DNA of 64,000 bases, taken from assembly GCA_018667855.1 (NCBI GenBank), contig JABIRL010000243.1:3464-67463 (forward strand), read 5' to 3'. Below, piece by piece: positions 2,564-34,324 of this stretch. The notes under the pieces are model-generated. The model was not told the origin of the DNA. It did not search any database and saw only the letters and a list, made by a program, of their open reading frames with translations. The number at the start of each line of letters is the position of its first letter. The stretch's first letter is position 1. The translations under genes were made by a program, and so were the position numbers. Source of the stretch: Rhodospirillaceae bacterium (lineage in GTDB: Bacteria; Pseudomonadota; Alphaproteobacteria; GCA-2731375).

Positions 2564-2857
2564 GGATATTCCTCCTGACCAAACCGACAGCGACGTTAAG
2601 GCGCATGCCCGGTGGGCGCAACGCCAAAGTCCATGGCCGGGGTGGATTCAAGTTCATATGCCCGTCCGCCCAACCTGCACGGGACATGGGCTGCGGATCA
2701 CTTTGCGCCAGCTATATTGCCCGTCGCCTAGGGAACATCGAGCATGTAGCGGCCCTGCTCGTCCTTCCAGCATTTCGCCCCGCAGCTTAGCCTCGGGCGA
2801 GGTGAGCTTGGCGGCGCGGGTCTTGTCGCTGGAATTACTGCCCGGCGCAAGTTGAAC

Positions 2858-4012
2858 TTAGCCGGTAGTGCTATTCGGTTCGGCCAGGAACGCCTTGAAG
2901 CGATCAGCCACCTCTCTTGGCGACAGTGTCGGTCTGCCGAGGCTATCTAGGGAGCCGGGACGAATACGTACATGAATAAGGTGGGGCCCTGGTTTTTCCA
3001 GCGCCGCCACGAAGGCTTTTTCGAAGCCATCGGGATCGTTGGCGAGGGCGGCGCCGGCATAGCCGCAGGACAGAGCGGCACCGGCGAAATCGACGCTTGG
3101 CGATACGGTCGGCTGGCCCCCCGTCGAGTCATGAACGCCATTGTCGAGAATAATGTGGACCAGATTGTCCGGGCCCATCGCGCCGATCGTGGCGAAGGCG
3201 CCCAGCTTCATCAGGGCGGCGCCGTCACCGTCGAGCACGACCACGGGCCGGTCCGAATTCAATGCCACCCCCAGGCCCATCGGTCCCGCGCAGCCCATGG
3301 AGCCGACCTGATAGAGGTGCTGCGGCCGATCGGCGAGGGTGAACAATTCGCGCCCGCACTTGCCGGTGCTCGCCACTATCGCGGCATTATCGGGGACGGC
3401 GGCGAGCACGCGTTCTAAAATCGCGTAGCGGGTCGGCAGCTCCGCCGAGACGGAAAGGTCGGTACGTGTACCGCTCGGTCGCACGGGAGGCGTTGTTTCG
3501 CTCAAGCCGTCATCGTGAACGCTGCCCTTTTCCATGATGAAGGCGAAGGGCAGACGGGTTTCGTTCAGGCTCGCCGACATCGCCGCGATCGCCGGGCCGA
3601 TTTCGTCCGCCGTGGCCGGAAAGGCCATATGGGGGATACGCAGAGTGTCGAGCAGGGCCGGCGTGATCTGACCCATCAGCTCGTGCTGCGGCTCGTCCGC
3701 CAAGCCAGGCTGGCCGCGCCAGGTAACCACCAGCAAGGTTGGAATTTGAAATGGTGCGTTGAGGGAAGTGAGCGGGTTCACCGCGTTGCCGAGACCGGAA
3801 TTTTGGCACATCACCACGGTCTGCCGGCCGGCCAGCCAGGCGCCCGCCGCGATGCCGACCGCCTCGCCCTCGCTCGCCGCCCCGACATAGCGGTTGGCGG
3901 GATCATTGATTACCCGGTTGATCAACGGCGTCAGGTAGGAGCAGGGCACGCCAGTGTAAAAATCAAAACCCTCTTGCCGCGCGGGTCCAAGAAAATCGTC
4001 GGCATTGATCAT
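2858..4012 (-). CDS. ppd: Phosphonopyruvate decarboxylase (TPP-dependent)
   Basis: 384 aa with a split TPP-binding fold (GDG...N motifs) and the length typical of Ppd/AepY. It lies 42 bp downstream of a PEP mutase gene in the same orientation. Confidence 0.8.
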   Translation of the reverse strand: MINADDFLGPARQEGFDFYTGVPCSYLTPLINRVINDPANRYVGAASEGEAVGIAAGAWLAGRQTVVMCQNSGLGNAVNPLTSLNAPFQIPTLLVVTWRGQPGLADEPQHELMGQITPALLDTLRIPHMAFPATADEIGPAIAAMSASLNETRLPFAFIMEKGSVHDDGLSETTPPVRPSGTRTDLSVSAELPTRYAILERVLAAVPDNAAIVASTGKCGRELFTLADRPQHLYQVGSMGCAGPMGLGVALNSDRPVVVLDGDGAALMKLGAFATIGAMGPDNLVHIILDNGVHDSTGGQPTVSPSVDFAGAALSCGYAGAALANDPDGFEKAFVAALEKPGPHLIHVRIRPGSLDSLGRPTLSPREVADRFKAFLAEPNSTTG

Positions 4013-4054
4013 ATTTGAGTTCCGTTTAGGTGACTAAATTTTAGGTGACCAAAT

Positions 4055-5680
4055 TTAGGCATTGAAATTTCCCGCCACGACAACATCCTGTACCGTGTCA
4101 ATATCGAGCCAATGCCCGGTGGTGTAGATGACGCGGATCGTATTGCCATCCTCAACCAACATATTGATCAGATCGGGCATCTTGAATTGCTGCTGCTCCG
4201 GGTTTGACAATAATTCATTCAAGGCGGATTTCATGATCGGAAATCCCTTGGCCGAAACCTTCAAGAATCCCATCCATTCACCGTGAATTTTGGCCTCTGG
4301 AAAATCGTCGCCGAGGCGCTTCAAACTGACATGCGTGGAAAATGTATCTCTTGAGTTCGGATGACTGCAGATGGCCCAATCGGCCTCTCGCCCGGCATTG
4401 CGGCTATTGACCCAATCCGCATCCACGGTGACGACGAAATCTTCCCCGGGTTCTTCCAGCAACGACAAAATATACTTGTTGAAAAGCACATCGCCGTAGG
4501 AAACAACCATGTCCGTACCTAAGTCGCCGAGATGGTCAACCGCCTGCTTTAGCGAGACCAGTTCGCCGGTGCTTTCATGGCGATCATTGTCCACATAGTC
4601 CAGGCCCGGCACATCGACCGCGTGCTTCATGTAACCGCGCACGACGACGAGCTTTTTTATGCCGGCCAAATTGTAGGTTTCGGCGATGTGGGCTAGCAAG
4701 GGCTTGCCGCGAATATCGATCATGACCTTGGGTTTGTCCTCCGTGAGGGCGCCCAGCTCCTTGCCTCTCGAGGCCGCAAGGATCACCGCGCAGGGTGCCT
4801 TTTCCGCCGATGGAAGATATCGCTTTTCAGCTTCCTTGAGCTCTGCTGCCCCTTGCAGGCGGAAAACCTCGTCAACGCCTGCGACATTGTCCTCGATCGA
4901 CAGCAGGTTCCGTTCGGCGTGGATTTGTTTGGCCGTGCGTTGCATGGCCGTAATGGACGCGCGCAGCAAATGATTGGCCCAAATAGCCAAAGAGAAGCCG
5001 GCATCCTCGAATACCTCCGTGGCCGTGGCGTAATATTTGGTCGGCACGATGACCACGGGGCAGCGGTCAGCCCATTCCGTCTTGAAGGCCAGCACTTCGT
5101 CGGCTACCGCCAGGGCGCTGTGGATCAAAATCGCATCGGCGCCTGCCTCATGATAGGCTTCGGCCCGGCGGAGCGCTTCGCCAAGGCCCCAGCCGGCAAT
5201 GAATGCCTCGACGCGCGCGACAATGCTGAAATCGTCATCCAGCTGGGCATCCTTGCCGGCCTTGATCTTGCCGCAAAATTCGTGGATGTCGGCCAGCGGC
5301 TGTGTGTCGCCCGAAATAAAGCTATTGGTTTTCGGAAAAATCTTGTCTTCGATACAGACCGCCGCAATGCCACGCTGCTCCAGCTTGTGGATCAACCGGC
5401 GGAAGTTGTTAAAACTGCCATAGCCGGTATCACCGTCCAGCATGATCGGCACGCTGCTGGCATCCGACATGAATTCCAATGTTTCCAGGACCTGGGTCCA
5501 GGAAGTCTCGTTGTTGTCGCGCACGCCATACTGCGCGGAAATTGTCAGGCCGCTGCCCCAGATGCCCTTGAAGCCCGCTTCCTCGACAATTTTGGCGCTC
5601 AATCCATTGTGTGCCTCACAAATGAATTCAAGCTCTCCCGAGGTTAGTAGCCCGCGAAAAGCGGTGGTCTTTTTCATCAT
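4055..5680 (-). CDS. pepM: Phosphoenolpyruvate phosphomutase (N-terminal) fused to a LicC-like nucleotidyl(cytidylyl)transferase domain (C-terminal)
   Basis: The N-terminal ~290 aa have the ICL/PEPM fold with the PEP-mutase-specific EDK-x5-NS motif ([13 protein letters not shown]). The C-terminal ~240 aa have an NTP-transferase fold ([13 protein letters not shown]...). The gene is ATGA-coupled to phnW upstream. Confidence 0.85.
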
Positions 5681-6852
5681 GTTCCCGTTCTGTTTAAGCT
5701 GCTTGTTTGATTGGTTGCCTTTGATGCCAGATCGTCGATGCCCATCGCTTCCAGCGTTGCCTTGACGGCAGCCAACGCTGCCCGCATTTCCAGCGCGCCC
5801 AGGGCGCCGATACAGCCGATCCGGAAGCTGTCCGCGAGGGCGAGCTTGCCCGGATAGATGACGAAACCGCGGGCGCTTAAATCGTCGTAGAAACGGGTAA
5901 ACTCGAAGCGGCTGTCGGCCGGCATCAGAAAGGTGACGATAATTGGCGCCTGGACGCTATCGGCCAGCAGGGTTTCAAAGCCGAGCTCGCGCATGCCCTG
6001 GACGAGAATATCGCGATTGCCGCCATAGCGGCGATGACGCGCGGCTACGCCGCCTTCCTCCCGGTGTTCGGCGAGGGCCTGGTCGAACGCCGCCAGTACA
6101 TGGGTCGGCGGCGTGAAGCGCCACTGTCCATTGGCTTCCAGACCGCGCCACTGCTCATAAAGATCCAGGGCCAACGAATGGGCATTGCCCTCGGCCAACT
6201 CCAGCCATTGCCTGGCGATCAGCGCGAAGGCGATGCCCGGAACACCTTCGAAGCATTTGTTGGAGGAGGCAATCAGGGCATCGAAGGGCACGCTGTCGCC
6301 ATCGATCGGAATGGCGCCGAAGGCGCTCATCCCGTCAATGATCAGGCGACGCTTATGGGCCTTCGTGACACGGCCAATCGCCACCATGTCGTTCAATATG
6401 CCGGTGGTGGTTTCGCAATGCACGACCACGACATGCTCGATCGCCGCGTCCTCACGCAAGGCCGCGTCCAGGGCCGTTGGATCGACCTGTTGATCCTCCG
6501 GCCAGCGCAACACCGAAACCTGGTGGCCGATCCGCTCCAGTATCGTCACGATGCGCTTGCCATAGGCGCCGTTTTCCAGAACCAGGGTCCGCTGTCCGGG
6601 CGCGATCAGCGTGCCCAGCGTGGCCTCCACGCCAAAAGTGCCACTGCCCTGCACCGGCACCGCGACATGGCTGTCCGCTACCCTTGCGATGTTCAACAAT
6701 CGATCTTGGATGCGCCTGGTGATGGCGATGAAGTCCGTGTCCCTGGAACCCCAATCGCGCAGCATCGCCTGCTTGGTCGCAAGCGATGTCGTCAACGGGC
6801 CCGGGGTCAGGAGATAATTGTCATTTCCACTATCGTTCATGATCAACCGCAT
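5677..6852 (-). CDS. phnW: 2-aminoethylphosphonate:pyruvate aminotransferase
   Basis: 391 aa class V aminotransferase with the PhnW-typical N-terminus ([11 protein letters not shown]). Its 4-bp overlap with the pepM start indicates translational coupling. Confidence 0.85.
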
Positions 6853-7419
6853 GGCGATTGTCAGATCGAGTGTCCATATTCAATACCTCCCCAAAAGGTT
6901 TGTTGTTTTGCCGGGGCGAAATCACGGCTTGAGCACATGAACCGAGCCGACATTTAAATGTCATCAAGGTCTCGCCGTGACTATTGATCACGGCAACGAC
7001 AGAAACATCGAAGTATCCAAGGCAATGGCCACAGAAGACGTAAAGACCATTGTCGTTGACGACGAGTTTGGCGGCGTATTCGGCGATGGTTTGGGCTAAC
7101 TCTTCAACCGCCGAATGAAGGCAGTACGACCCATGGCTCATCCTGCCAACTCTAAGCTGGCAATGGTCATAATGACGACATCGCCAGAAACGCTCGACAA
7201 TCTCAAATTGAATATTTCCCAGCCTATCGGAATACTACCGGCCACGAAATTTCAGGTAACATTTACGTCGAGGGCGATCCTATCCGATTTCCAATAACAT
7301 AGAAACCTTTATCCCGATACTGGCGGTCCAACAGCCGGATACTGGCAACTTTACTGTGTTCGAAAGACCGCCAATTGATGGATTCTATTGAATTTCTATT
7401 CCGCGACAATTTCTTTTCT

Positions 7420-8988
7420 TCACCGCCTTGGCGGACGTTGTTCGACCACGCCGTCTGGCCCGAGCCGTGTGTTGGCCAGGGTCCGTTCATCGTGGTTCAT
7501 GCGCCAGCTGAGCATTTTTTGCGCATAATCAAGGACCAGTCGGTGATAGGCGGGATCGTCGGCGAGATTGTGAAACTCGTGCGGATCGTTTTCCAGATCG
7601 AAAAATAGCGGCGGCAGACCGGTAAAATGGACGTATTTGTAGCGTTTGTCCCAGAGCAGATTGGCGCTGCACTGATCTGGTGTCAGGCCCAGCGTCCGCC
7701 CGCCGTCAAGCCCCGGAAAATGCCGAAAATCGAACGCCGCATGCGCTTCCTCGCGCCAATCTCGGACGTCGGCGCCGTGGCAGAAAGGCAGCAACGAGGC
7801 GCCGTCACAGGCGGCGGGAACCTCAAGACCCAGCCACTCCAGGATCGTCGGCATGAGATCGACATTCTCGCTGAAGGCCTCGATCGCCGTGCCGCGCGCC
7901 TGGTCGGAGGCGGCGCGCGGGTCACGGATGATCAAAGGGATATGGTAGGTCTGTTGGTAGTAGCTGAATTTCGACATCATCCAATGATCGCCCAACTGCT
8001 CGCCATGATCGGAGGTAAAGACGATTAGGGTCCGCTCCCAAGCGCCCGTCTCTTTCAGATGTGCGATCAGGCGTCCGATTTGGTCATCGATCTCCGTTAT
8101 CATGGCGTAGTAGGTCGCCCTGATTTGCCGTATTTCGGCTTCGCCGATGTCAAGGTAATCCTTCAGCAAAGCGCCATGGGTATAGGCTGCATCCAGCTGG
8201 TTCGAGAGATAAAATCGGGTCCATGGATGCTGCTTGGCTTCTTCCTCGGCGCTGGCACGGCGAACGGGCAGCGGCACGTCCGCCGGATCATAGAGGGCAT
8301 GATAGGGTTCGGGCGCGATATACGGGGGATGCGGCGCGTGATAGGAGATGTGGGCGAACCAGGGTGTCGAGGGGCGGTCCGAGATGTAGGCCAACACCTC
8401 ATCGGTTAGAAAGGCCGCGCCGCTGTCTTCCGCCCGGTACCACGTCGGCGCGTAGGTGCGGCCCCGGCTTGGATCGATACCTTCCCGGTTAGGGCGAAAA
8501 AGCGCGCGTGGATCGTCATCGACCTGATACCCCCGCTGTCGCAACGCATTTTTCCATGCCTGGTAGCTGGCATCCATACGGACCACCGGCGTCAACCCCG
8601 GCAACAGTCCGGCCCGCGTCCTGAGCTCGGGGTCTTCCGGGTCCCGGCCGCGCGGGTCGGCGGCGATATCGGTATATCCGAACAGGGCGGGATCATGGCC
8701 CCCCTTGCGGGCCTCGAGCGCGACATTGGCATGGCGGTCGTCCAGCGGCGTGCCGTTCGTCACCGTGCGGTGATTATGCTGATAGAGGCCCGTGTAGAGG
8801 CTGGCGCGTGCCGGCCCACAGGGCGTGGACTGGGAATAGTGGTGGCGAAACAGGGTGCCCATCGCCGCCAGCGCGTCCAGATGCGGCGTCTTCACGATCG
8901 CATGGCCCTGGGCGGAGAGGCATTCGCCCCGCCACTGATCCGCTGTGATAAAAAGTACGTTTTCCACCGTCTTGCCCGTCGTTGTCAT
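7420..8988 (-). CDS. Sulfatase-family (alkaline-phosphatase superfamily) hydrolase, Cys-type formylglycine motif, no signal peptide; arylsulfatase / phosphonate-monoester-hydrolase-like
   Basis: 522 aa. Residues 10-20 (LFITADQ) begin the sulfatase fold directly, with no signal peptide or TM. The C-x-P-x-R signature (TPCGPARASLYTG) and downstream SDHG metal ligands are present. Confidence 0.8.
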   Translation of the reverse strand: MTTTGKTVENVLFITADQWRGECLSAQGHAIVKTPHLDALAAMGTLFRHHYSQSTPCGPARASLYTGLYQHNHRTVTNGTPLDDRHANVALEARKGGHDPALFGYTDIAADPRGRDPEDPELRTRAGLLPGLTPVVRMDASYQAWKNALRQRGYQVDDDPRALFRPNREGIDPSRGRTYAPTWYRAEDSGAAFLTDEVLAYISDRPSTPWFAHISYHAPHPPYIAPEPYHALYDPADVPLPVRRASAEEEAKQHPWTRFYLSNQLDAAYTHGALLKDYLDIGEAEIRQIRATYYAMITEIDDQIGRLIAHLKETGAWERTLIVFTSDHGEQLGDHWMMSKFSYYQQTYHIPLIIRDPRAASDQARGTAIEAFSENVDLMPTILEWLGLEVPAACDGASLLPFCHGADVRDWREEAHAAFDFRHFPGLDGGRTLGLTPDQCSANLLWDKRYKYVHFTGLPPLFFDLENDPHEFHNLADDPAYHRLVLDYAQKMLSWRMNHDERTLANTRLGPDGVVEQRPPRR

Positions 8989-9008
8989 ATCGGCACCGCG
9001 TTAAACCA

Positions 9009-10307
9009 CTACTGTAGGTCGGCTTGCTGTCTGGTTTCAGCCGCCGCCGGGTCGAGGTAGGTATATTCAACGTCTTTAAATTCACCATAAAGGACACGCA
9101 AATATGCCTCTGGATCATGGGGACAGTCGAAGGTGCCGCCGAGGAAGTCAATTGTCGATGTCGGCAGGACGATCTCTTGCGGCACACCATAGCCGCCGCT
9201 TTCTGTCACTGCCATGGCACCCTTGTGGCTTTGCCTTTCCAGCACCGTTTCACCGTGACTGATAGCCTTTCGGTAAAGTGCCACATCAACCCGGATTTCG
9301 CCGCGAAGACGATAGCGCTCCCAGCGAAAGAGCCATGATTTCGGCGCATCGAAGGAGATCGATATGAGATTTTTCCGTTCGAAAAGATCAATGAAGAAGC
9401 CATCCCGCCTACAGCGTTTGCTGAGCCCGGCGGACAACCTATCCCAACTCATCTCGGCGTCCAGCAGAACCGATATATCGATATCGTCCTTCCAGTCCAG
9501 AAGCGTGCCATTCTCCCGTACGGCACCAAGCAGGCTGCCGCCCTCCAACCAGTACACCGCCCCCATATCGCGCAGGCGGTCGGCGACGTAGTGGCAGATT
9601 TCCCGCATATGTTCGCGGCAGCAGGGCGCGGTGTTGAGGCCAAGACGGTTGACGTAAAGGTTGAAGGGACAGGGCGGCGTATTTTTGCTGCAGCCCCTCC
9701 AACTGACGTTGTCCCCGGACAGCACCAGTTCGCGGATGCCGTGGCGCCGACGGAAGGCCTCTAGATCACCGCCCGCCTGGGTCTCCAGGACCGCCAAATC
9801 GCTATCGTTGAAGGAATGGAGCCGCCGTCGCCGGCCGGCCAAGTGCTGGCGCAAGGACCACGACATTTCAATCATCATGGCGGCCGCCAGCATCGCCTGC
9901 AGCTTGAGGTTCGGCACCGCCAAGCCGGCTGCCAGCGCTGGTGCGAGCAACCACAAGCCTGCATGCTCGGCGTGTTTGGCCAGGAATTCCACCCCTCGAT
10001 TGGCCGGACGGAAGGCAATTCCCGGGGCCGCGACAATGGCAAATATGACAATGATGAAGGCAGCCGATACCGCCAGGCCGATTATGTCCAGACCGATTGT
10101 GTCCAGATCATGGCCCGACAGCGACACCCAGGCCAGGGTAAGGGCCACGAGAAACCCTGTCGTTGCCACGGCAGAGGGGCCAAGCGCGACCCAGTTCCGC
10201 GGAAAGCGCAGGAGGCGAACGAAGGATAGATATGCCGCCACGTAAAGGCCGGCGGCAATCAGCCCGGCGAAAAACTGGGTGACTGCTGAGGCTTCAAAAC
10301 CGGTCAT
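9009..10307 (-). CDS. licD: LicD-family phosphotransferase with N-terminal polytopic membrane domain
   Basis: The C-terminal domain carries the LicD/fukutin motif (VYWLEGGSLLGAVRENGTLLDWKDDIDISV). The N-terminal ~150 aa form 4-6 predicted hydrophobic helices. I prefer the start MTGFEAS at 10307, ATGA-coupled to the upstream NTase. The longer track ORF, which would begin at 10472, has a basic low-complexity 55-aa extension that overlaps the upstream gene. Confidence 0.7.
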   Translation of the reverse strand: MTGFEASAVTQFFAGLIAAGLYVAAYLSFVRLLRFPRNWVALGPSAVATTGFLVALTLAWVSLSGHDLDTIGLDIIGLAVSAAFIIVIFAIVAAPGIAFRPANRGVEFLAKHAEHAGLWLLAPALAAGLAVPNLKLQAMLAAAMMIEMSWSLRQHLAGRRRRLHSFNDSDLAVLETQAGGDLEAFRRRHGIRELVLSGDNVSWRGCSKNTPPCPFNLYVNRLGLNTAPCCREHMREICHYVADRLRDMGAVYWLEGGSLLGAVRENGTLLDWKDDIDISVLLDAEMSWDRLSAGLSKRCRRDGFFIDLFERKNLISISFDAPKSWLFRWERYRLRGEIRVDVALYRKAISHGETVLERQSHKGAMAVTESGGYGVPQEIVLPTSTIDFLGGTFDCPHDPEAYLRVLYGEFKDVEYTYLDPAAAETRQQADLQ

Positions 10308-11143
10308 AAGTCTTGTGCCGCACCTTTGTTGATGTCCTTTGTGCTCACGGTTGTATCGCGGCTTTTCGTTGCCGCCGGTGCGTCGTGCCGGCGACCCGCG
10401 TTCAGCGCGATACGCGGCAGGATTTCGGTTTCGGCGCGCGCGACATCGGCGGCGAAATCGATCTCGATCCAAGGCAACCCGGTGATGTCCTCAAAAGCGA
10501 ATGCGCCCCGTGGTGAGGTCAGCAGCACATCGCGGATCGTCTCCTCGTAGGGCTCGTGGCGGCGGCCTTGGTCCAGATAGAGAGCGGTCTGGGCGATAAT
10601 CAACTGGGCCGCATCGCTGGATAACTTGAACATACCCACGGATTCACCGCAGAAATCGAACCCGGTGCTCAACCATTTGCGGAATTCGACAATCTCGCCG
10701 TCCCGCACACATATCTTGACAGGTTCATCGCCCGGCTCGAAGTCACGATCGAGGAGCAGGCAGTTCCGATGGGGCGAGTTCATCAGACGTTGCAGCAGCT
10801 CTTGGTCATAGAGAATATCGGCATCCATGAGCAGCACCGGGCCGTCGCAACGCAGTTCGTCGCGCACTGTCCACAAGGTGACGATATTGCCCTCCCGATA
10901 ATCCTCATTGAATACCACCCGCACGAAATCCTGCGCGCCCAGGGCCATGATCTCTCGCTCGATTTCCTGGTATTTGTAACCGACGCCCAGCACCAATTCA
11001 TCGATGCCCTGTTGCCTGAGAATTTCGAGGTGATATTCCAGCAACGATTTACCACCGAAGCGCAATAGAACCTTCGGCGGTGGTTCCGTGATACTGGATC
11101 CGAGCCGGGCGCCGATCCCGGCCGCCAACATGACTGCCTTCAT
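10304..11143 (-). CDS. LicC-like sugar-phosphate/phospho-base cytidylyltransferase (stand-alone)
   Basis: 279 aa with an N-terminal MKAVMLAAGIGARLG P-loop-like NTP-transferase signature and overall LicC/PntC-like architecture. Confidence 0.8.
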   Translation of the reverse strand: MKAVMLAAGIGARLGSSITEPPPKVLLRFGGKSLLEYHLEILRQQGIDELVLGVGYKYQEIEREIMALGAQDFVRVVFNEDYREGNIVTLWTVRDELRCDGPVLLMDADILYDQELLQRLMNSPHRNCLLLDRDFEPGDEPVKICVRDGEIVEFRKWLSTGFDFCGESVGMFKLSSDAAQLIIAQTALYLDQGRRHEPYEETIRDVLLTSPRGAFAFEDITGLPWIEIDFAADVARAETEILPRIALNAGRRHDAPAATKSRDTTVSTKDINKGAAQDL

Positions 11144-11234
11144 TTGTGACTATTTTCCTCCAACCTGACTTGCGCCAGGATACTACCAATTTTGCCCGCT
11201 ATTCCCAAGCTTAGCGCGGCGCAGGCTAGCGGAA

Positions 11235-12104
11235 CTAGACTGGTGACCAACTCGCATGGCGCGCCAGGTTGCGCAGAATTTCGGCTTCAGGGCCAAGCCG
11301 GTCGAGACAGGACAGCGCCATCTCCTGATACCGCTGGGCCTGGATTTTCGTATCCCCGACACCAAAGAAATGGATGGCGGTACGCTTGCCGACATCGTTA
11401 CCCGGTAGCTTGCCGACTTCACCAAGACCCGCTTCCACGTCAGCGACATCATCGAGATACTGGTACGACAGCCCGAGGTTCATGCAGGCTTCATAGACGG
11501 CCGTGCGATCTTCCTCGCCGGCGCCGCAAAAAGTCGCGCCGACCCGCGCGGCCGAGGCGTAGAGGGCGCCGCTTTTCCGTCGGTAGCATTCAAGCATCGT
11601 CGCTTGTTCGTCACCACTTGTCGGCTGAGATAAATCGATCTCCTGACCCTCGATCATCAATAGAGCGGCGTTGCTCATCTCGATCGCCCCTGCCAGCCGC
11701 CGCTCGGGCGTCACGGATGGATTGTCGAGCACCGCTCGATAAGCCGTATTGATCAGGTACATCGGCGCCAGATGGACGGCCCATGCCGGGTAAACAATGT
11801 GGGCGCTGGGCTTCCCGCGCCGGTAGTCTGCATCATCCATCGACGGCAAATCGTCCAGTATCAATGACGCCCCGTGCGCCATCTCGACCCCGCAGGCAAG
11901 CGACATACAAATCGTCACGGCATCCCGGTCAAAGATGTTTCCCGCCGCGATGGCCACCATGGCGCGCCAGCGGTGTCCGCCTCCCAACACACCGTATTTG
12001 GCGGTGCGGCAGACTTCCGTGTCGTCCTGCGCCGAGAGAATCTCATCAAGGCGCTGCTCAACGGATTGTCGTACGCGCGTCTTGAAGTCCTCGAATGTGT
12101 TCAT
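11235..12104 (-). CDS. trans-Polyprenyl diphosphate synthase (FPP/GGPP synthase family)
   Basis: 289 aa with the first (LILDDLPSMDDADYRRGKP) and second (YQYLDDVADV) aspartate-rich motifs. Confidence 0.8.
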   Translation of the reverse strand: MNTFEDFKTRVRQSVEQRLDEILSAQDDTEVCRTAKYGVLGGGHRWRAMVAIAAGNIFDRDAVTICMSLACGVEMAHGASLILDDLPSMDDADYRRGKPSAHIVYPAWAVHLAPMYLINTAYRAVLDNPSVTPERRLAGAIEMSNAALLMIEGQEIDLSQPTSGDEQATMLECYRRKSGALYASAARVGATFCGAGEEDRTAVYEACMNLGLSYQYLDDVADVEAGLGEVGKLPGNDVGKRTAIHFFGVGDTKIQAQRYQEMALSCLDRLGPEAEILRNLARHASWSPV

Positions 12105-12556
12105 CAGAATTCCTAATTAAACCGATCCATGGCCTGTCAGTGAAGCTGATCTGTGAGTTCTTTTCAACCGACACCGCAACTCTATCTATTGGGTCGCGAT
12201 CAGCAGCCCCTTCGGACAGTCCGACATCATTCACGGATTGCCCTCCCATCATTTTCCATTTCGCGGTGAGATTCTCGGTCAATTCCGGCAAGGGCCCTGT
12301 CGTCGGTCATCGACCACGCACTGGATGCGAAAGCGCCGGCTGTCCGTAAAGGCATCCGAAACGAAATCCAATGACCCGCTGCTTGGTGCTCCTTCTGGTT
12401 CAGCCGCCACCGTCGGGATTCTTGAACCATGCCTGCCAAAGCGGCCTCATATTACGACGGTAAAGAACGACCTCGGCGTCTCTAAAATGATGAATATCTC
12501 CGTCCATGGCAAATCTCGCGTGCTATCGATTTGCTACGCATGATCCAAAAGGCAGA

Positions 12557-12588
12557 ATGGGTTACGTGATACATCACGTAACCCATTG
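12557..12588 (-). terminator. Perfect 15-bp-arm hairpin followed (minus strand) by a T-tract; likely rho-independent terminator of tRNA-Leu
   Basis: AATGGGTTACGTGAT-AC-ATCACGTAACCCATT sits 19 bp beyond the tRNA 3' end. The minus-strand continuation reads CTGCCTTTTGG. Confidence 0.45.
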
Positions 12589-12606: not shown

Positions 12607-12692
12607 TGGTGCCCCTGCCCCGACTCGAACGGGGACGTCCTAAGGACAATAGATTTTGAATCTATCGCGTCTGCCAATTCCGCCACAGGGGC
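12607..12692 (-). tRNA. tRNA-Leu (anticodon CAA), type II with long variable arm, CCA encoded
   Basis: The reverse complement folds as a cloverleaf: acceptor GCCCCTG/CAGGGGC, anticodon stem ATAGA/TCTAT with loop TTCAAAA, a long variable arm and a 3' ACCA. Confidence 0.85.
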
Positions 12693-21782: not shown

Positions 21783-21882
21783 ATGACTGAATTTACTTTG
21801 TTGCGCGGCAAGATATCAGGCTGCTCGATCTTTGAGTAGGAAACATGTGCTATGATTTTCCATGATCAGTGGGGAGGCCGCT

Positions 21883-22839
21883 ATGGGCAACAACGCTATA
21901 GGGATCGAACGGCTGGGCCGCAGCCTTTGTGCCCAGGTGCATGGCGCGGATTTGTCGAAGCCGTTGTCGGATGCCGATTTCGCGGCCATTCACGATGGCC
22001 TGGCGGAACACGAAATGCTGCTGTTTCGCGATCAGGATATCACCGCCTCGTCGCAGCTTGAATTCGGCCGCCGCTTCGGACCGCCCTCGGTGCATCCGTT
22101 CTCACCCAACCTGGCGGATATGCCGGAATTGATCGTGCTGGATAATCACCAGGACAACCCGCCGCGCCTCACGGATATCTGGCACAGCGACGAGACCTTC
22201 CGGGCGGAGCCGCCCATGGCGACAATTCTGCGTTCGACCATTACGCCGAAACTGGGCGGCGATACCATGTTTGCCTCAATGTCGGCAGCTTACGATGATC
22301 TCAGTGATCACTTGCAGCACTTCCTCTCGGGCCTGGAGGCGGTGCACGATTTCAAGCCGTTCCGCACCCTGCTGGCCAACGACGAAGATGGGCACCGCCG
22401 ACTGCGCGAACTGGAAGCGAAATTCCCCCTGCAACACCATCCCGTCGTCCGGCTGCATCCCGTCAGCGGCCGCAAGGTGATTTTCGTCAATCCGCAATTC
22501 ACCATCGGCATCAAGGGCATGGACGAACGGGAAGCCCAGCCGCTGCTGGCCATGCTGTTTGATTTGGCCAAGGTGCCGGAATATCAATACCGCCTGCAAT
22601 GGCAGCCGAATACTTTGGCGATCTGGGACAATCGCTCGGTACTGCATTACGCCATTCATGACTACCAACCGCAGCGCCGTCGCATGGAGCGGATCACCAT
22701 TTGCGGCGACCGGCCCTTTGGCGTTCAGGACGGCCGGCAGGTGCCGTTAATCGCGCGTCAGCCCATCGCGGCCGAGACGCCATCGGCCGTCGAGGCGGAG
22801 CCGGTGCGCGAAGTCTATCGAGGGGGGCGCAACGCATGA
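21883..22839 (+). CDS. tauD: Taurine dioxygenase-like Fe(II)/2-oxoglutarate dioxygenase (TauD/TfdA family)
   Basis: Long collinear blocks match E. coli TauD as I recall it from memory (LSKPLSD, FLRDQ, WHSDETF HxD motif, HPVVRLHPVSG, AIWDNRSVLHYA). Start is either 21862 or 21883. Confidence 0.8.
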   Translation: MGNNAIGIERLGRSLCAQVHGADLSKPLSDADFAAIHDGLAEHEMLLFRDQDITASSQLEFGRRFGPPSVHPFSPNLADMPELIVLDNHQDNPPRLTDIWHSDETFRAEPPMATILRSTITPKLGGDTMFASMSAAYDDLSDHLQHFLSGLEAVHDFKPFRTLLANDEDGHRRLRELEAKFPLQHHPVVRLHPVSGRKVIFVNPQFTIGIKGMDEREAQPLLAMLFDLAKVPEYQYRLQWQPNTLAIWDNRSVLHYAIHDYQPQRRRMERITICGDRPFGVQDGRQVPLIARQPIAAETPSAVEAEPVREVYRGGRNA

Positions 22840-23678
22840 TACTGGTGCAAATATCGGACACCCATATCGATGAGCCTGATACGTTGGTTTACGGCCATTT
22901 CGATACATCCCTGGCTTTGGCCCAGGCAGTCGCGGCGATCAATGCCATGGACCCCGCGCCAGATCTGGTGCTGCACACAGGTGACATCGCCTCCCATGGC
23001 AGCGTGCCCCGGTACGAAGCCTTCAAGGCCATCGTCGACGAACTAAAGGCGCCCTTGGCGCTTATGCCTGGCAATCACGATGACCGGGATGCGCTGCGGG
23101 AAGTCTTCGGCGGTACGCAACGACTGCCGGCGACCGGCGATTTCCTGCATTTCGTCATCGACGACCAGACGGTGCGGATTATCTGTTGCGATAGCGTGAT
23201 CGCCGGCGATACGCCGGGCGAGATGTGCGCGGAGCGACTGGCCTGGCTGGATGAACAATTGGGCGCGGCAACGGACCGTCCCACCATTGTCGCCCTGCAT
23301 CATCCACCCTTCTATTCGGGCATGACCGGCAGCTCAGCCAAGGGATTGAAAAATGGCGGCGGTGAACTGGATGCCCTGCTGCGCCGCCACCCCCAGGTCG
23401 TACGCGTCCTGGCCGGCCATTCACACCGGCCCATGACCACGGCCTTTGGCGGCACTATTGCCTTTGCCGGACCCACCACCTGCTATCCCTTCGGCCTGGA
23501 TACCGGGCCGGAGCGGGTCCTGAACGTCACCTACGAGCCGCCGGCATATGCCGTACATTTATGGCTGGGAGACGCATCGCCCGCCGGCGCCGATCTGGTT
23601 ACACACACTGTGCCGATAGGCGACTGGCCGGCGCCCATGGCTCTCTTGAAGGCCGGCGTAAAAGTATTGGACGTTTAA
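22836..23678 (+). CDS. Calcineurin-like metallophosphoesterase, GpdQ/CpdA class (phosphodiesterase)
   Basis: MILVQISDTHID...HTGDI...PGNHDD motifs I-III and the GHSHR motif. The ATG overlaps the tauD stop (ATGA). Confidence 0.75.
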   Translation: MILVQISDTHIDEPDTLVYGHFDTSLALAQAVAAINAMDPAPDLVLHTGDIASHGSVPRYEAFKAIVDELKAPLALMPGNHDDRDALREVFGGTQRLPATGDFLHFVIDDQTVRIICCDSVIAGDTPGEMCAERLAWLDEQLGAATDRPTIVALHHPPFYSGMTGSSAKGLKNGGGELDALLRRHPQVVRVLAGHSHRPMTTAFGGTIAFAGPTTCYPFGLDTGPERVLNVTYEPPAYAVHLWLGDASPAGADLVTHTVPIGDWPAPMALLKAGVKVLDV

Positions 23679-30417: not shown

Positions 30418-31302
30418 TCATTCAGGTGTATTTTTCGGCCAACGATTATGCGGCCAAAGCCATTGCTCCGGGCGCGCCCTGATCCAGTCTTCCATCAAAT
30501 CATTGACCTGTCCCATCAGGGCCGTGATATCGGCGGTTTGATCGTTGCCGGTGGCATAGACCATGGGTTCGTGGATGGTGACACGGAAAGCAGCTCCCCC
30601 GAGTCGTTCGCAACGTACTGGAATGACGGGCAAATTACGACGCAAGGCCAATTGCGCCAGGGCTGGCGCGGTCATGGCGGGGTGGCCGAAAAACGTTACC
30701 TCGATGCCGTCATTCATTTTCTGGTCGACCAGCATGCCGACAGTTTCGCCCTTATTGAGGGCGGCGAGGATGCCCCGCGCGGCGGAAGCCCCCTTGGCCA
30801 GAGCGCCGAGGGATGAACCTTCCCGCACATGCCACAGCCATTGGTCGATCAGCGGATTGTTTGCGGCGCGATAGACCACATGCATGGGCCGGCCCAGCTT
30901 GGCCGTAACCAGATACATCAATTCCCAATTGGCCAGGTGGCCGCCAAACAGCAGCGAACCCTCCCGGCCTTCCAGATTGGCGGTGCCGATAACCTGTATT
31001 TGGCCCGCCCGCGGGGGCTGGTCGGTCAAGGTGAAATCCGGCAGATGCGGCAGTTCGGCGATTGTGCGGCCCAAATTCCGCCAGACACCGGCCCTGATGG
31101 CGGCGCGTTCACGGGGTTTCAGATCGGGCATGGCCAGGATCAGATTTCGTTCAACCCGGCGCGCCAAAATCGGCAAAAGGCCGATCGCCGTACCCAGGGC
31201 TGCCCCCACGTTCGAGGCGGCGGCTATGGGCAGAGCCGTCAACAAGGCCCAAAAGCACCGTGCCAGACAATATTCCAGGCGATAGCGGATCGGATGCTTC
31301 AT
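30418..31302 (-). CDS. Lipid A biosynthesis (Kdo)2-lipid IVA acyltransferase (LpxL/HtrB family)
   Basis: 294 aa with one N-terminal TM and an LPLAT fold. It sits immediately downstream of lpxK and waaA. Confidence 0.7.
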   Translation of the reverse strand: MKHPIRYRLEYCLARCFWALLTALPIAAASNVGAALGTAIGLLPILARRVERNLILAMPDLKPRERAAIRAGVWRNLGRTIAELPHLPDFTLTDQPPRAGQIQVIGTANLEGREGSLLFGGHLANWELMYLVTAKLGRPMHVVYRAANNPLIDQWLWHVREGSSLGALAKGASAARGILAALNKGETVGMLVDQKMNDGIEVTFFGHPAMTAPALAQLALRRNLPVIPVRCERLGGAAFRVTIHEPMVYATGNDQTADITALMGQVNDLMEDWIRARPEQWLWPHNRWPKNTPE

Positions 31303-32300
31303 GGCGCCTTATTCGCACCCCTGTCCGCAAGGACCATGTCCAACAGTTTGTCTAGTCTCTCCTCGTCATCGAATTCCAAAGTGACGTCGATCACCGTCAC
31401 CATATCCCTGGCACCGGGGGGCAGGCGCACCGCATCCTTGGCCGTGGTCACGGCAATGGCATTCCGCTCGCGGGCCGCCTCGATCACCGCCCAGATTTCG
31501 TCCTCGCGGAAAGGATGATGATCGGGAAATGCTTGTTGGCCTACCAGTTCCGCGCCCAGTTCCCGCACGGTATGAAAAAAGCGCTCCGGTCGACCGATCC
31601 CGGCGAAGGCGACAACGGGCTGTCCCCGCAAAGCCAGGGCGTCCGGGCCCGGTATCAAACGAGCCGTCAAGGGCGCCGCCGCCATATGGGGCAAGGGTGC
31701 CGGTGCCTCGCCCGATTGCAGGATGATCACGGCATCGGCCCGAGCCAGACCGGTGGCGGCGGTTTCGCGCAAGGGGCCGGCGGGATGCACCCGGCCGTTG
31801 CCCAGGCCATAGGCGCCGTCGATCACCAGCAGGGAGAGATCCTTGGCCAGGCCCGGATTTTGAAAGCCATCATCCATGATGATGGCCTGGGCGCCGGCAG
31901 CGATGGCGGCACGGGCGCCCCGGACGCGGTCACGGGCAATCCAGGCCGGCGCGGCGGCGGCCAGCAACAGGGGTTCGTCGCCCACATCGCCGGCATCATG
32001 TACCTTACCGTCGACCCGTATCGGGCCCGATAGGCGGCCGCCATGGCCTCGACTAAGGAAATGCGCCGCGATCCCCCGCCGCGCCAAGGCCCGACCGATG
32101 GCCAGCGCGGTCGGCGTCTTGCCGGCACCGCCGGCGACCAGATTGCCGACACAGATCACCGGCACCGGCCCCTGCCAAGGTTGGCTCAGCGCCCAGCGCA
32201 GACGGCCCAGGCCCGCGTAAAGCCAGGCCATGGGTTGCAGAACCCGGGCCAGGACGCCATCCTGGTGCCAGAATTCAGGCGTTCGCATCGCCCGACCCAT
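31299..32300 (-). CDS. lpxK: Tetraacyldisaccharide 4'-kinase
   Basis: PVICVGNLVAGGAGKTP P-loop typical of LpxK. Confidence 0.8.
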   Translation of the reverse strand: MGRAMRTPEFWHQDGVLARVLQPMAWLYAGLGRLRWALSQPWQGPVPVICVGNLVAGGAGKTPTALAIGRALARRGIAAHFLSRGHGGRLSGPIRVDGKVHDAGDVGDEPLLLAAAAPAWIARDRVRGARAAIAAGAQAIIMDDGFQNPGLAKDLSLLVIDGAYGLGNGRVHPAGPLRETAATGLARADAVIILQSGEAPAPLPHMAAAPLTARLIPGPDALALRGQPVVAFAGIGRPERFFHTVRELGAELVGQQAFPDHHPFREDEIWAVIEAARERNAIAVTTAKDAVRLPPGARDMVTVIDVTLEFDDEERLDKLLDMVLADRGANKAP

Positions 32301-33606
32301 GTTCCATCGGCGGCTGATCCGTCGGCGGCTGATCCGGCGGCGGTTGACCCGGCAGCAGGGGTGCGAGCTGCTTCAAAACAGCCCTGACCACATCGTGGCC
32401 ATCATCGGCTGCCAACACAGCAGCCTTGGCCCGGCGCGCAACCTCCGCTTCATCGCGCAACAACAGGGCGATCTGGTTACCCAGACTGTTCCCGTCGGTG
32501 ACCAGGGCGGCGCCACCGGTCATGGTCATGGCCGCCGCCTGTTCGGTAAAATTGAACATATGCGGTCCGAACAACAGCGCCGAGTCCAGGCGCGCGGCTT
32601 CAAGGGGGTTTTGCCCGCCATGTTCAACCAATGACCCGCCGATAAAAACAATGGACGCCAGGCGATAGTACAAGCCCATTTCGCCCATGCTGTCGCCCAG
32701 ATAGATATCCGTCTCCGCGCCGATCGGCTGATCCAGGCTGCGCCGGGCCACGGTAAGCCCCAGACCCGCCAATTCCGCCGCGATGGCCTCTCCGCGTTCG
32801 GCATGGCGGGGCACCAACAGCGTGACAAGACCGGGGAATTGCTTGGCCAGCCGTCGGTGGACCACACCGACCGTGATTTCCTCGCCGGGATGGGTGGACG
32901 CCGCCAGCCACCGGGGCCGCCGGGCCATGGCGGTGTTCAATATATGCAAATCCCTGGGATCAACCGGCAATGGCGCCGATGCGGCCTTCAGATTACCATG
33001 GAAGGCCACGTTATGGGCGCCCAAGGTCGCCAGGCGGCCGGCGTCGGGTGCGCTCTGTGCAATGCAGAATTGAAACGACTGCAGCAAGGGTTTTATCACC
33101 GAGGGCAGGCGCCGCCAGCGTCGGAAAGATTTTTCAGACATGCGGGCGTTGATCAACGCCATGGGGGTGCCGCGCCCCTTTGATTGGTGGATCAGGTTGG
33201 GCCAAAGTTCGGATTCCACCCAAAGGGCAAGGTTCGGCCGCCAGTGTTCCAGAAAGGCCGCTACGGCGGCGGGTTGGTCAATGGGGATATATTGATGCAG
33301 GGCCCGGGCCGGCATTCGGTCGGCAATGATCCGAGCCGATGTCACGGTGCCCGAGGTCAGCAATACGTGCAATTCCGGATCCTGATGCAAAAGCCGCTCA
33401 ACCAATGGCAGCACGGATATCATTTCACCGACCGAGGCGCCATGCACCCATATCAGCATGCCTTGCGGGCGCTCCCGCCCCGGCTGGCCCAGCCGCTCGC
33501 CAAATCGCAGGGGATCTTCCTTGCCCCGGCGCAGACGGCGCCGCAGAAACCAGACCAGCAATGGCCCGAATAGGGTCGTCAAGCCGCGATACAGCCGATA
33601 AGTCAT
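32275..33606 (-). CDS. waaA: 3-deoxy-D-manno-octulosonic acid (Kdo) transferase
   Basis: WVHGASVGE N-terminal motif and a GT30 fold. The C-terminal tail carries P/Q/D-rich imperfect repeats. Confidence 0.8.
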   Translation of the reverse strand: MTYRLYRGLTTLFGPLLVWFLRRRLRRGKEDPLRFGERLGQPGRERPQGMLIWVHGASVGEMISVLPLVERLLHQDPELHVLLTSGTVTSARIIADRMPARALHQYIPIDQPAAVAAFLEHWRPNLALWVESELWPNLIHQSKGRGTPMALINARMSEKSFRRWRRLPSVIKPLLQSFQFCIAQSAPDAGRLATLGAHNVAFHGNLKAASAPLPVDPRDLHILNTAMARRPRWLAASTHPGEEITVGVVHRRLAKQFPGLVTLLVPRHAERGEAIAAELAGLGLTVARRSLDQPIGAETDIYLGDSMGEMGLYYRLASIVFIGGSLVEHGGQNPLEAARLDSALLFGPHMFNFTEQAAAMTMTGGAALVTDGNSLGNQIALLLRDEAEVARRAKAAVLAADDGHDVVRAVLKQLAPLLPGQPPPDQPPTDQPPMEHGSGDANA

Positions 33607-34319
33607 GGCGCCGCCCCGGCCAGTTGATCGGCCTGCTCGGTAACCCTATCCAGCGCGGCCTCGACCTGGAGGCGGGCGGCCTCTTGCCCTTGGTCATCAA
33701 GCTTGCGTTGGATATTGATCGGCTCGCCGAATATCATCGCGCCCCTGGAAAACGGCAGGGCAAAACGAAAACTGTCCCAGCTTCGAAACAGTCGAAATCG
33801 TGCCGTGCAGATTGTCACCGGTATGATCGGCGCGCCGGACAATCGTGCCAAGGTTATGACCCCGGCGCTGAGCTGCCGGGCCGGGCCGCGCGGACCATCG
33901 GGGGTCAGGCCAATGGTATGCCCCGCCTTTAACAGCGTCAGCATCTGACGCAGGGCAGCGGCCCCACCCTTGTCGCGATCTCGATCCTGGCGGTGGGTCG
34001 ACCCGCGCACCATGATCATGCCGAAATGAGCCAATGTGCGCGCCACTAACTCACCATCCCCGTGCCGGGATACCAGCAAATGCAAAGGTTTCCGGCCGGT
34101 CCAGCCGGCCGGGATCATCATCAAGCTGCTGTGCCAGGTAATCGTGATGACGCCGCGCCCTTGGGCCAGGGTGTCGGGAATGATCCGGCCGTTGGAAACC
34201 TGCCATCGGGTGGTTCGGATAACCAGGCGGATATAGTGGGCTATCAGATAACCAATGATGGCCTGACCACGAGAGCTGCCCAGAATTCGTTTGCTCCACG
34301 ACCGTCTGTCCACAGCCAC
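33603..34319 (-). CDS. DUF374 / lysophospholipid-acyltransferase-like protein commonly linked to waaA
   Basis: 238 aa. Its 4-bp overlap with the waaA start indicates translational coupling. Confidence 0.55.
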   Translation of the reverse strand: MAVDRRSWSKRILGSSRGQAIIGYLIAHYIRLVIRTTRWQVSNGRIIPDTLAQGRGVITITWHSSLMMIPAGWTGRKPLHLLVSRHGDGELVARTLAHFGMIMVRGSTHRQDRDRDKGGAAALRQMLTLLKAGHTIGLTPDGPRGPARQLSAGVITLARLSGAPIIPVTICTARFRLFRSWDSFRFALPFSRGAMIFGEPINIQRKLDDQGQEAARLQVEAALDRVTEQADQLAGAAP

Positions 34320-34324
34320 CGATG

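Follow-up and report, generated by a model that had tools for sequence, protein, structure and literature searches.

Our analysis of a 64,000-nucleotide stretch of DNA from a Rhodospirillaceae bacterium (GenBank assembly GCA_018667855.1, contig JABIRL010000243.1), hereafter called the window, points to a probably mobile block of seven genes dedicated to a phosphonate head group. In this block, 2-aminoethylphosphonate (AEP) would be made, activated as its cytidine monophosphate (CMP) derivative, CMP-AEP, and esterified onto a lipid or lipid-linked acceptor by a membrane transferase of the LicD family, and a homolog of the phosphonate monoester hydrolases (PMH) would hydrolyze AEP esters. Judged from gene families and gene order, we hold this account to be reasonably probable. 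In the direction of transcription, the genes encode a prenyl diphosphate synthase (IPPS), a stand-alone cytidylyltransferase (NT2), the LicD protein, the PMH homolog, an AEP:pyruvate transaminase (AEPT), a phosphoenolpyruvate (PEP) mutase (PepM, or Ppm) fused to a nucleotidyltransferase (NTase), and a phosphonopyruvate decarboxylase (Ppd).

A first-pass annotation of the window had described seven co-directional minus-strand genes at 2858-12104, adjoining a tRNA-Leu gene, and had proposed that they install an AEP-type head group on the cell envelope. All seven open reading frames are present where it placed them, ARAGORN identifies the neighboring tRNA as tRNA-Leu(CAA), and the two ATGA overlaps that it noted, between the AEPT stop and PepM start and between the NT2 stop and LicD start, can be read directly in the sequence. 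Transfer of an AEP-type head group to an envelope acceptor is still the most economical reading of a locus with a complete Ppm-Ppd-AEPT set, two LicC/PntC-type NTases, and a LicD-family transferase. Making AEP, activating it with CMP, and transferring it with a LicD-like enzyme follows a logic that is already published, and hence the block does not represent a novel type of system. It stands out as a probably mobile Pnt-type AEP module whose membrane LicD transferase is of a distinct type and in which a hydrolase of the PMH clade is embedded.

A discrete block in several genomic contexts

We compared the window with 80 metagenome loci around LicD homologs, two genome loci, and 14 loci around exact protein matches. 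The last group was anchored on the window proteins plus PMH and PepM homologs, with about 10 kb of flank visible on each side; individual loci are cited by number (e.g., L097). Proteins identical to those of the window are encoded on four NCBI assemblies and on one 166-kb JGI contig. In L097, which lies on a 1.78-Mb contig, the genes for IPPS, NT2, LicD, PMH, AEPT, PepM/NT, and Ppd follow one another in the window order. Window positions 2854-12299 align to this locus as one blastn high-scoring segment pair (HSP) of 9509 columns at 85% nucleotide identity, and the flanks are unrelated. Because the same seven genes keep the same order in another genome with unrelated flanks, the arrangement is more than chance. 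Furthermore, a six-gene core (NT2-LicD-PMH-leader-AEPT-PepM/NT-Ppd) is found in four flanking contexts, namely, the window, L097, L007/L100, and L012/L101. In one of these, a gene for the phosphonate-catabolic enzyme PhnA (TIGR02335, 514 bits) flanks the core and is divergent from NT2 (L007, 7162-8451, minus strand; L100, 2681-3970, minus strand).

The single HSP with unrelated flanks, together with the relic of an IS3-family transposase at its edge, suggests that the 9.4 kb between 2854 and 12299 form a discrete and probably mobile block. The relic, LDFVSDAFTDSRRFRIQCVVDD, abuts the block edge at 12299 on the tRNA-Leu side, between that edge and the tRNA gene. The plasmid regions to which it aligns in tblastn carry the annotation IS3 transposase or integrase, and 516 plasmid records have a match (E values down to 3e-5). 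The short fragment had no match in Pfam. In addition, transposases are found near L097, and an integrase, a tRNA-Pro gene, and a TrwC relaxase near L100. Neither direct nor inverted repeats could be recognized convincingly at the two ends of the block.

Within the block, the NT2-LicD pair is the most conserved unit, with NT2 directly upstream of LicD in 42 of the 62 loci with enough sequence. This pair is joined to pepM in three distinct arrangements, which argue for real coupling. In L022 and L099, for example, NT2-LicD is convergent to AEPT-PepM-Ppd, and neither PMH nor IPPS is present. In L098, the AEP trio sits between glycosyltransferases, with no LicD within 10 kb. Gene remnants also occur: L099 holds a 97-residue LicD relic between Ppd and an aminotransferase (12254-12544, minus strand), and L095 holds a 63-residue NT2 relic upstream of an aminotransferase-PMH pair (8398-8586, plus strand). 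We take these relics as signs of repeated module rearrangement.

A complete AEP pathway and two cytidylyltransferases

By family membership, the locus encodes the complete Ppm-Ppd-AEPT route to AEP, in which PepM would convert PEP to phosphonopyruvate, Ppd would convert this to phosphonoacetaldehyde, and AEPT would yield AEP. The Ppd protein scores 445 bits against TIGR03297 (cutoff, 312.5), contains the TPP_enzyme_N and TPP_enzyme_C domains, and is 63% identical to the aepY product of Roseomonas. PepM scores 380 bits against TIGR02320 (cutoff, 319.6), matches both PF13714 and PF12804, and carries the Ppm-specific motif EDKxxxxxNS at residue 111; over its full length, the fusion is 51-55% identical to aepX of Roseomonas, Mycetohabitans, and Burkholderia. 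AEPT lies above all cutoffs (NF010006, 512 bits; TIGR02326, 457 versus 400.8; TIGR03301, 449 versus 360.8) and is 55% identical to its Roseomonas counterpart. The Pfam and NCBIfam profiles agree with the gene families of the first-pass annotation except that two labels had been swapped: what it called phnW, at 2858-4012, is Ppd, and what it called ppd, at 5677-6852, is AEPT. The intergenic distances are -4 nt for AEPT/PepM and 42 nt for PepM/Ppd. Most of the latter spacer is taken up by a tandem 15-nt repeat, TTTAGGTGAC(T/C)AAAT x2, at 4025-4054.

In the NTase domain fused to PepM (window 4055-4870), the PF12804 match spans residues 298-420, and the stand-alone NT2 is encoded four genes away. 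NT2 matches the structures of LicC (1JYK) and of the PntC enzyme Tde1415 (6PD1, with a full-length alignment). It is 47-48% identical to the stand-alone PntC proteins that Roseomonas marmotae and Mycetohabitans rhizoxinica encode in their AEP clusters. Orthology to PntC enzymes suggests that NT2 converts CTP and AEP to CMP-AEP; it aligns with both LicC and Tde1415, and its identity to PntC proteins from AEP clusters bears only indirectly on a preference for AEP over phosphocholine. Its signature is the canonical LAAGIGARL, and LicC and Tde1415 likewise keep LAAGxGxRL, whereas the PepM-fused domain of the window has the degenerate LAASRGKEL. The same is seen more widely, since the fused domains of the window, Roseomonas, Mycetohabitans, and L099 have LAASxGxE/GL or, in Roseomonas, a deletion. 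Given these differing signatures, we infer that the two NTases are nonredundant. The degenerate Ppm-fused copy may explain why such clusters keep two NTases (PntCs), and it may still contribute to CMP-AEP formation despite its signature.

A narrow family of membrane LicD proteins

The LicD protein scores 34.8 bits against PF04991 (gathering threshold, 22.6), with an alignment limited to the first 30 positions, at the N-terminal end of the profile. FKRP is both its only sequence match in the PDB (3.7e-14) and its only significant fold match (3.4e-10). FKRP takes a CDP-activated donor and releases CMP. We place the start of the gene at ATG 10307, with which all homologs agree in beginning with MTG or MIG, rather than at TTG 10472, as listed by the ORF finder for the earlier annotation. 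Five N-terminal transmembrane (TM) helices are predicted (8-34, 44-63, 75-97, 104-129, and 134-159), followed by invariant motifs at C206, C213, C229-C230, and D274-D275-x-D277, whose aspartates do not vary in 47 sequences. From the distribution of positive charge in the loops at 30-45, 95-112, and 150-175, the catalytic domain is predicted to be cytoplasmic, where CMP-AEP would be made.

By analogy with its family, LicD would transfer a group from a cytidine nucleotide donor to the hydroxyl of a glycan or lipid. Specifically, on the cytoplasmic face, it would move the aminoethylphosphonyl group of CMP-AEP to the hydroxyl of a lipid or lipid-linked glycan, releasing CMP. A lipid acceptor is suggested because the protein has a membrane anchor and because LicD stands here where the cluster family most similar among those described has CDP-alcohol transferase and LPG-synthase-like proteins.

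This is a narrow LicD family: clustering at 50% leaves about 8 full-length representatives, and the named homologs are mostly from marine metagenome-assembled genomes of Alphaproteobacteria. The plasmid collection contained no LicD match, and thus no cultured, annotated host was found. A literature search, whose coverage was incomplete, did not turn up a description of this family. Homology of the TM domain to Group 1 LPG-synthase TM or CDP-OH transferase proteins was rejected (hhalign probability, <1%), and cluster counts for PepM (about 24, at at least 78% identity) and LicD (>120, at at least 62%) were dropped as a proxy for co-occurrence because LicD evolves faster.

A PMH homolog among biosynthetic genes

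The hydrolase encoded between LicD and AEPT matches the sulfatase-family profile PF00884 (3.8e-48), has the fold of the alkaline phosphatase superfamily, and is homologous over its full length to the PehA/PMH enzymes of Rhizobium leguminosarum (RlPMH, pRL90232, 2VQR; E values about 1e-149 to 3e-149) and Burkholderia caryophylli (BcPMH, 2W8S; about 1e-144 to 3e-144). Residues 9-517 align to the former, with 46% identity, and residues 6-515 to the latter. As in those enzymes, and at the same position, the formylglycine motif CxPxR is present, here as C57-G-P-A-R, and there is no signal peptide, the N terminus being free of any hydrophobic stretch. The clade to which it belongs is tight, with members 72-89% identical and the next sequences at or below 66%.

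PMH copies at 74-90% identity adjoin NT2-LicD in the window and in L097, L007, L012, L013, L014, L034, and L096, and a more divergent copy (54%) does so in L027. In L094 and L095, PMH is apart from the NT2-LicD pair and follows an aminotransferase. In L096, NT2-LicD-PMH stands beside PhnX (6049-6897, minus strand; TIGR01422, 277 bits versus 220), a class III aminotransferase, and a LysR regulator; in L034, it is near a Ugp-like ABC transporter and GDPD. The recurrence of PhnX, PhnA, and Ugp/GDPD as neighbors fits a role for PMH in the turnover or salvage of AEP esters, and the protein looks like an enzyme of that kind, not a tailoring step of biosynthesis. The predicted product of LicD would be a phosphonate monoester, which is the PMH substrate class. 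The cytoplasmic PMH homolog would most likely hydrolyze such esters in head-group turnover or salvage, and the AEP that is set free would be re-activated or catabolized.

These steps could be closed into a cycle in which LicD attaches AEP to an acceptor in the membrane that may derive from an isoprenoid and PMH removes it again, with the AEP returning to NT2, which needs no kinase, or passing on to PhnX or PhnA. We offer this cycle tentatively, as a doubtful extension of the account given above. If it were true, the PMH enzymes, for a long time investigated only as a model of catalytic promiscuity, would have AEP esters as their physiological substrate. In addition, the block would provide candidate enzymes to build and dismantle the esters of phosphonates that predominate in marine high-molecular-weight dissolved organic phosphorus. 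A PMH-like enzyme has been postulated, but no more than that, to free phosphonates from esters in dissolved organic matter (Sosa et al. 2017, PMC5649143).

The classical pehA gene is accompanied by an Opp-type ABC importer in Rhizobium, Pseudoroseomonas, and Roseibium, and by phnF as well in Roseibium. Furthermore, pmh genes adjoin the catabolic genes phnW-phnX or phnW-phnY-phnA (2026 paper, PMC13608971). Unlike classical PehA, the PMH homolog of the window is encoded between LicD and an AEP biosynthetic operon, and neither an Opp-type importer nor phnF was seen around it in the window, L097, L007, or L012. Within the literature that we could search, with incomplete coverage, we found no description of a PMH/PehA-type hydrolase inside a phosphonate biosynthetic cluster. 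This would make it the first PMH homolog to be placed in one.

It could be argued that salvage comes first, that is, that NT2-LicD-PMH is an autonomous module working mainly on scavenged AEP, which PMH would free from esters either imported or of the cell's own making, NT2 would re-activate without a kinase, and LicD would install, with PepM-Ppd-AEPT as an optional supply. NT2-LicD, with or without PMH, is free of pepM within 10 kb in L096, L034, L014, L019, and L036, yet pepM may lie elsewhere in those genomes, of which about 10 kb on each side is visible. The company that the trio keeps in L096 and L034, and that classical pehA keeps with importers and phnF, would suit scavenging. In the window, however, no phosphonate importer was found adjoining the trio, and the cytoplasmic location of PMH means that esters would have to be imported first. 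In favor of scavenging, a diatom is reported to channel exogenous 2-AEP via CMP-AEP into lipids (PMC9765203). The linkage of NT2-LicD to pepM in three different arrangements speaks against a module that is indifferent to AEP synthesis, and we consider salvage first to be unlikely.

Weighing the evidence for a coupled system

Several observations weigh against the proposed sequence of AEP synthesis, activation, transfer, and hydrolysis. Of the 8 LicD loci whose sequence extends 6 kb or more in both directions, only 1 contains pepM, and NT2 too is absent from 20 of 62 LicD loci, where LicD lies among unrelated genes. Because of this scarcity, the LicD family may not be specific to phosphonates or may rely on genes located elsewhere. 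The first-pass annotation had held that conservation of these genes in genomes without pepM would count against its proposal, and we found this in part: NT2-LicD, with or without PMH, is often free of pepM within 6-10 kb. The PMH homolog scores below the cutoff of the PehA profile, its best match among the models (NF045661, 602.9 bits versus 900), and is placed in a sister clade of PehA; it is missing from L022, L098, and L099, and no formylglycine-generating enzyme is annotated in positions 1-59 kb of the window. Moreover, RlPMH and BcPMH are multiply promiscuous enzymes, so that a substrate cannot be read from sequence. The TM domain in the structural model of LicD is of low confidence (predicted local distance difference test score, 43-55). 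Finally, IPPS is absent from two of the four contexts of the core (L007/L100 and L012/L101) and from L099.

Some of these observations are what would be expected if the genes stood together by coincidence. In that case, NT2-LicD would install a nonphosphonate group such as phosphocholine, the promiscuous PMH would be a general scavenger of phosphodiesters or sulfate esters, IPPS would be a housekeeping gene, and PepM-Ppd-AEPT alone would be related to phosphonates. Most of the LicD family does lie away from pepM, in unrelated contexts (hut genes, glmS/glmU, and a multicopper oxidase), but six genes travel together in four contexts and share one 9.5-kb HSP in two of them. Similarly, NT2 matches LicC about as well as it matches PntC, yet its closest annotated relatives found in the plasmid collection are all inside AEP clusters. 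No choline kinase or transporter gene (licA or licB) was seen in the annotated loci, and the phosphonate-catabolic PhnA and PhnX recur beside the module. On balance, we regard coincidence as improbable.

The prenyl synthase

IPPS opens the block, and its relevance to the proposed AEP chemistry is uncertain. The protein matches PF00348 (109 bits) and has the Asp-rich motifs DDLPSMD at residue 84 and DDVAD at 218. It falls under the NCBIfam cutoffs for FPPsyn (149 versus 275) and CrtE (144 versus 460), and thus chain length is unassigned by profile. Small residues (A and S) ahead of the first Asp-rich motif presumably mark a resemblance to CrtE-type enzymes. An IPPS 90% identical in amino acid sequence occupies the same position in L097. 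The idea of a dedicated prenyl synthase, put forward in the first-pass annotation, therefore holds for two of the four flanking contexts, in which IPPS lies inside the conserved block, and fails in the other two and in the metagenomes, where IPPS is absent from every one of the 42 LicD loci whose upstream sequence covers 1.9 kb or more. We regard IPPS as a lineage-specific passenger of uncertain relevance. It could perhaps supply an isoprenoid-derived acceptor or carrier in this lineage, an idea that comes solely from co-inheritance in two contexts and from loose parallels elsewhere.

Isoprenoid genes have been noted near Ppm before, in Roseomonas (PMC8776678) and Nitrosococcus (PMC8942020). 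On plasmid p1318-3 of R. marmotae (L092, 1325-17578), a Group 1-type AEP cluster is flanked by genes for a polyprenyl synthase, ispH, hpnH, a hopanoid-associated phosphorylase, shc, and an MMPL transporter. In Mycetohabitans pBRH01 (L091, 12012-17602), dxs and an MMPL transporter flank the AEP cluster; no such genes flank that of B. cenocepacia (L093).

Such neighborhoods invite the suggestion that IPPS is integral to the block and that AEP is esterified to a prenol, hopanoid, or other isoprenoid lipid, giving a lipid of the membrane or else a metabolite that is secreted. IPPS and its own upstream region do lie inside the block in two unrelated contexts, at 90% amino acid identity, and the R. 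marmotae polyprenyl synthase gene adjoins the NT2 ortholog, with ispH, hpnH, and shc also flanking; similar speculation has been published for Roseomonas/Belnapia (PMC8776678) and Nitrosococcus (PMC8942020). However, the synthases of the window and Roseomonas are only 31% identical, which gives no orthology signal. A comparison of the two was for this reason set aside as uninformative. Neither a cyclase, a squalene synthase, nor a prenyltransferase is found in the annotated window (1-59 kb), B. cenocepacia has its cluster without isoprenoid neighbors, and the core is found without IPPS in the contexts listed above. We give a terpene phosphonate little credence.

Relation to described systems

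In the Pnt loci of Treponema denticola, Atopobium rimae, and Olsenella uli, Ppm is fused to PntC, and both another NTase and LicD-like transferases are encoded nearby (Rice et al. 2019, PMC6697681); their pathway has been modeled on the Lic phosphocholine pathway (PMC6697681). Our block resembles them in its AEP core, in a Ppm-fused PF12804 cytidylyltransferase, in a further NTase (one or two genes off in the Pnt loci), and in a LicD-like phosphotransferase; the window has a PF12804 NTase both fused to Ppm and within five genes of it. It differs in that LicD has a conserved N-terminal domain of five TM helices and an FKRP-like, Cys-rich catalytic domain and belongs to a narrow family, in that a PMH-type hydrolase is embedded and glycosyltransferases are lacking, and in that the hosts are free-living marine bacteria and not oral anaerobes.

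The Burkholderiales_CDP-OH family is the most abundant Ppm neighborhood family, and two of the seven genes of its core encode PntCs (Li and Horsman 2022, PMC8942020). As in our block, one of the PntCs is fused to Ppm. The closest annotated relatives that we found in the plasmid collection for PepM-NT (51-55%) and NT2 (47-48%) come from this family, and the Roseomonas Ppd (63%) and AEPT (55%) are likewise homologous to those of the window. Queries from Roseomonas and Mycetohabitans (tblastn) detected a CDP-alcohol phosphatidyltransferase, an LPG-synthase-type TM protein, and a 2-oxoglutarate-Fe(II) oxygenase in B. cenocepacia, and none of the three in the window or the related marine loci. In their place stand the membrane LicD and PMH. 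This family corresponds to the Group 1 phosphonolipid gene clusters, reportedly described by Yu et al. in 2013.

Our block also shares with the Lic pathway (LicA-D) and with FKRP-fukutin the activation of a head group with a cytidine nucleotide by an NTase and its transfer onto a glycan or glycolipid by a LicD fold. In contrast to the Lic pathway, the block has no kinase or transporter, the expected donor is a CMP-phosphonate, not a CDP-alcohol, and the transferase has a five-helix anchor. Neither a kinase nor a transporter would be needed because the phosphonate already carries phosphorus. We know of no characterization in bacteria of the steps beyond CMP activation. The terpenoid-linked Ppm clusters of Roseomonas/Belnapia (PMC8776678) and Nitrosococcus (gene cluster family 731, PMC8942020) are similar in that an isoprenoid gene adjoins a Ppm-NT-type AEP cluster. 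They differ from the window, which has a lone short-chain prenyl synthase, without shc, hpn, or squalene synthase, and has it in part of the clade only.

These comparisons narrow the earlier suggestion that three accessory genes set the locus apart from described ones. The suggestion stands for the PMH-type hydrolase, sulfatases being mentioned in one survey for Selenomonas only (PMC8942020). It holds only partly for the prenyl synthase, and it does not hold for the second cytidylyltransferase, since Ppm-fused and separate NTases have already been described together (PMC6697681, PMC8942020). Nevertheless, the 9.4-kb block is a compact, transferable, and testable unit with a candidate AEP transferase from a narrow LicD/FKRP-type family.

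Leader region, flanks, and neighboring genes

The spacing of the genes is tight through most of the array, as first annotated, with the exception of a 567-nt gap between PMH and AEPT (6853-7419). This spacer is conserved at 67-88% nucleotide identity in 8 loci, two of which have no PMH upstream, with counterparts at 8287-8837 in L097, about 7535-8085 in L012, about 7300-7861 in L099, and about 8250-8820 in L098. We discarded a small open reading frame within it (orf103, 6830-7141) as an eighth gene; in L012, L013, L097, and L007, stops, a frameshift, or a deletion interrupt it, and it has no codon-phase bias. The spacer had no match in Rfam, and RNAalifold gave no covariation support for a structure (terms of about 0 and +3). 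A search for Pho boxes returned 4 matches where 3.4 were expected by chance, and scans for promoters and terminators were also at chance level, except for a terminator at the tRNA gene. The spacer may serve the AEP operon as a long leader or in its regulation. Transcription of the block probably proceeds in two units, IPPS-NT2-LicD-PMH and leader-AEPT-PepM/NT-Ppd.

Table 1. Features of the AEP block and its tRNA-side flank (window coordinates)
Feature	Coordinates	Strand	Basis and remarks
Ppd (phosphonopyruvate decarboxylase), 384 aa	2858..4012	-	TIGR03297 and TPP (thiamine pyrophosphate) domains; final gene of block
PEP mutase fused to C-terminal PF12804 NTase (PepM-NTase), 541 aa	4055..5680	-	TIGR02320, PF13714, PF12804
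AEP:pyruvate transaminase (AEPT/PhnW-AepZ)	5677..6852	-	NF010006, TIGR02326, TIGR03301
Conserved noncoding spacer, possible leader, upstream of AEPT	6853..7419	-	Nucleotide conservation among 8 loci
PMH/PehA-like formylglycine-type hydrolase, 522 aa, predicted cytoplasmic	7420..8988	-	PF00884, PMH homology
Polytopic membrane LicD/FKRP-type phosphotransferase, 432 aa	9009..10307	-	PF04991, FKRP matches
NT2, stand-alone LicC/PntC-like cytidylyltransferase, 279 aa	10304..11143	-	PF12804, LicC and PntC structures
Short-chain trans-prenyl diphosphate synthase (IPPS), CrtE/IspA-like, 289 aa	11235..12104	-	PF00348; first gene of block, this lineage only
Region upstream of IPPS, still in conserved block	12105..12299	-	L097 blastn HSP ends at 12299
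IS3-family transposase relic (flank, outside pathway)	~12300..12390	-	tblastn versus plasmid records
tRNA-Leu(CAA) (flank)	12607..12692	-	ARAGORN

Other genes of possible interest lie farther from the block. A row of lipid A/Kdo genes at about 30418-36244 on the minus strand, some 20 kb off, encodes an MsbA-like ABC transporter, a DUF374 protein, WaaA, LpxK, and a lipid A acyltransferase; in other genomes, this row is unlinked to the block. Adjacent genes for a TauD-family oxygenase and a metallophosphoesterase (21862-23678, plus strand) are about 10 kb from the block, with ffh, rpsP, rplS, and leuCD in between. In the other loci, we saw nothing to connect these two genes with phosphonate genes. 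On the near flank, tRNA-Leu(CAA) is followed by leuB. A perfect 15-bp inverted repeat (I18) with a 2-nt loop and a T-rich tail at 12556-12587, just downstream of the tRNA gene, is probably its terminator.

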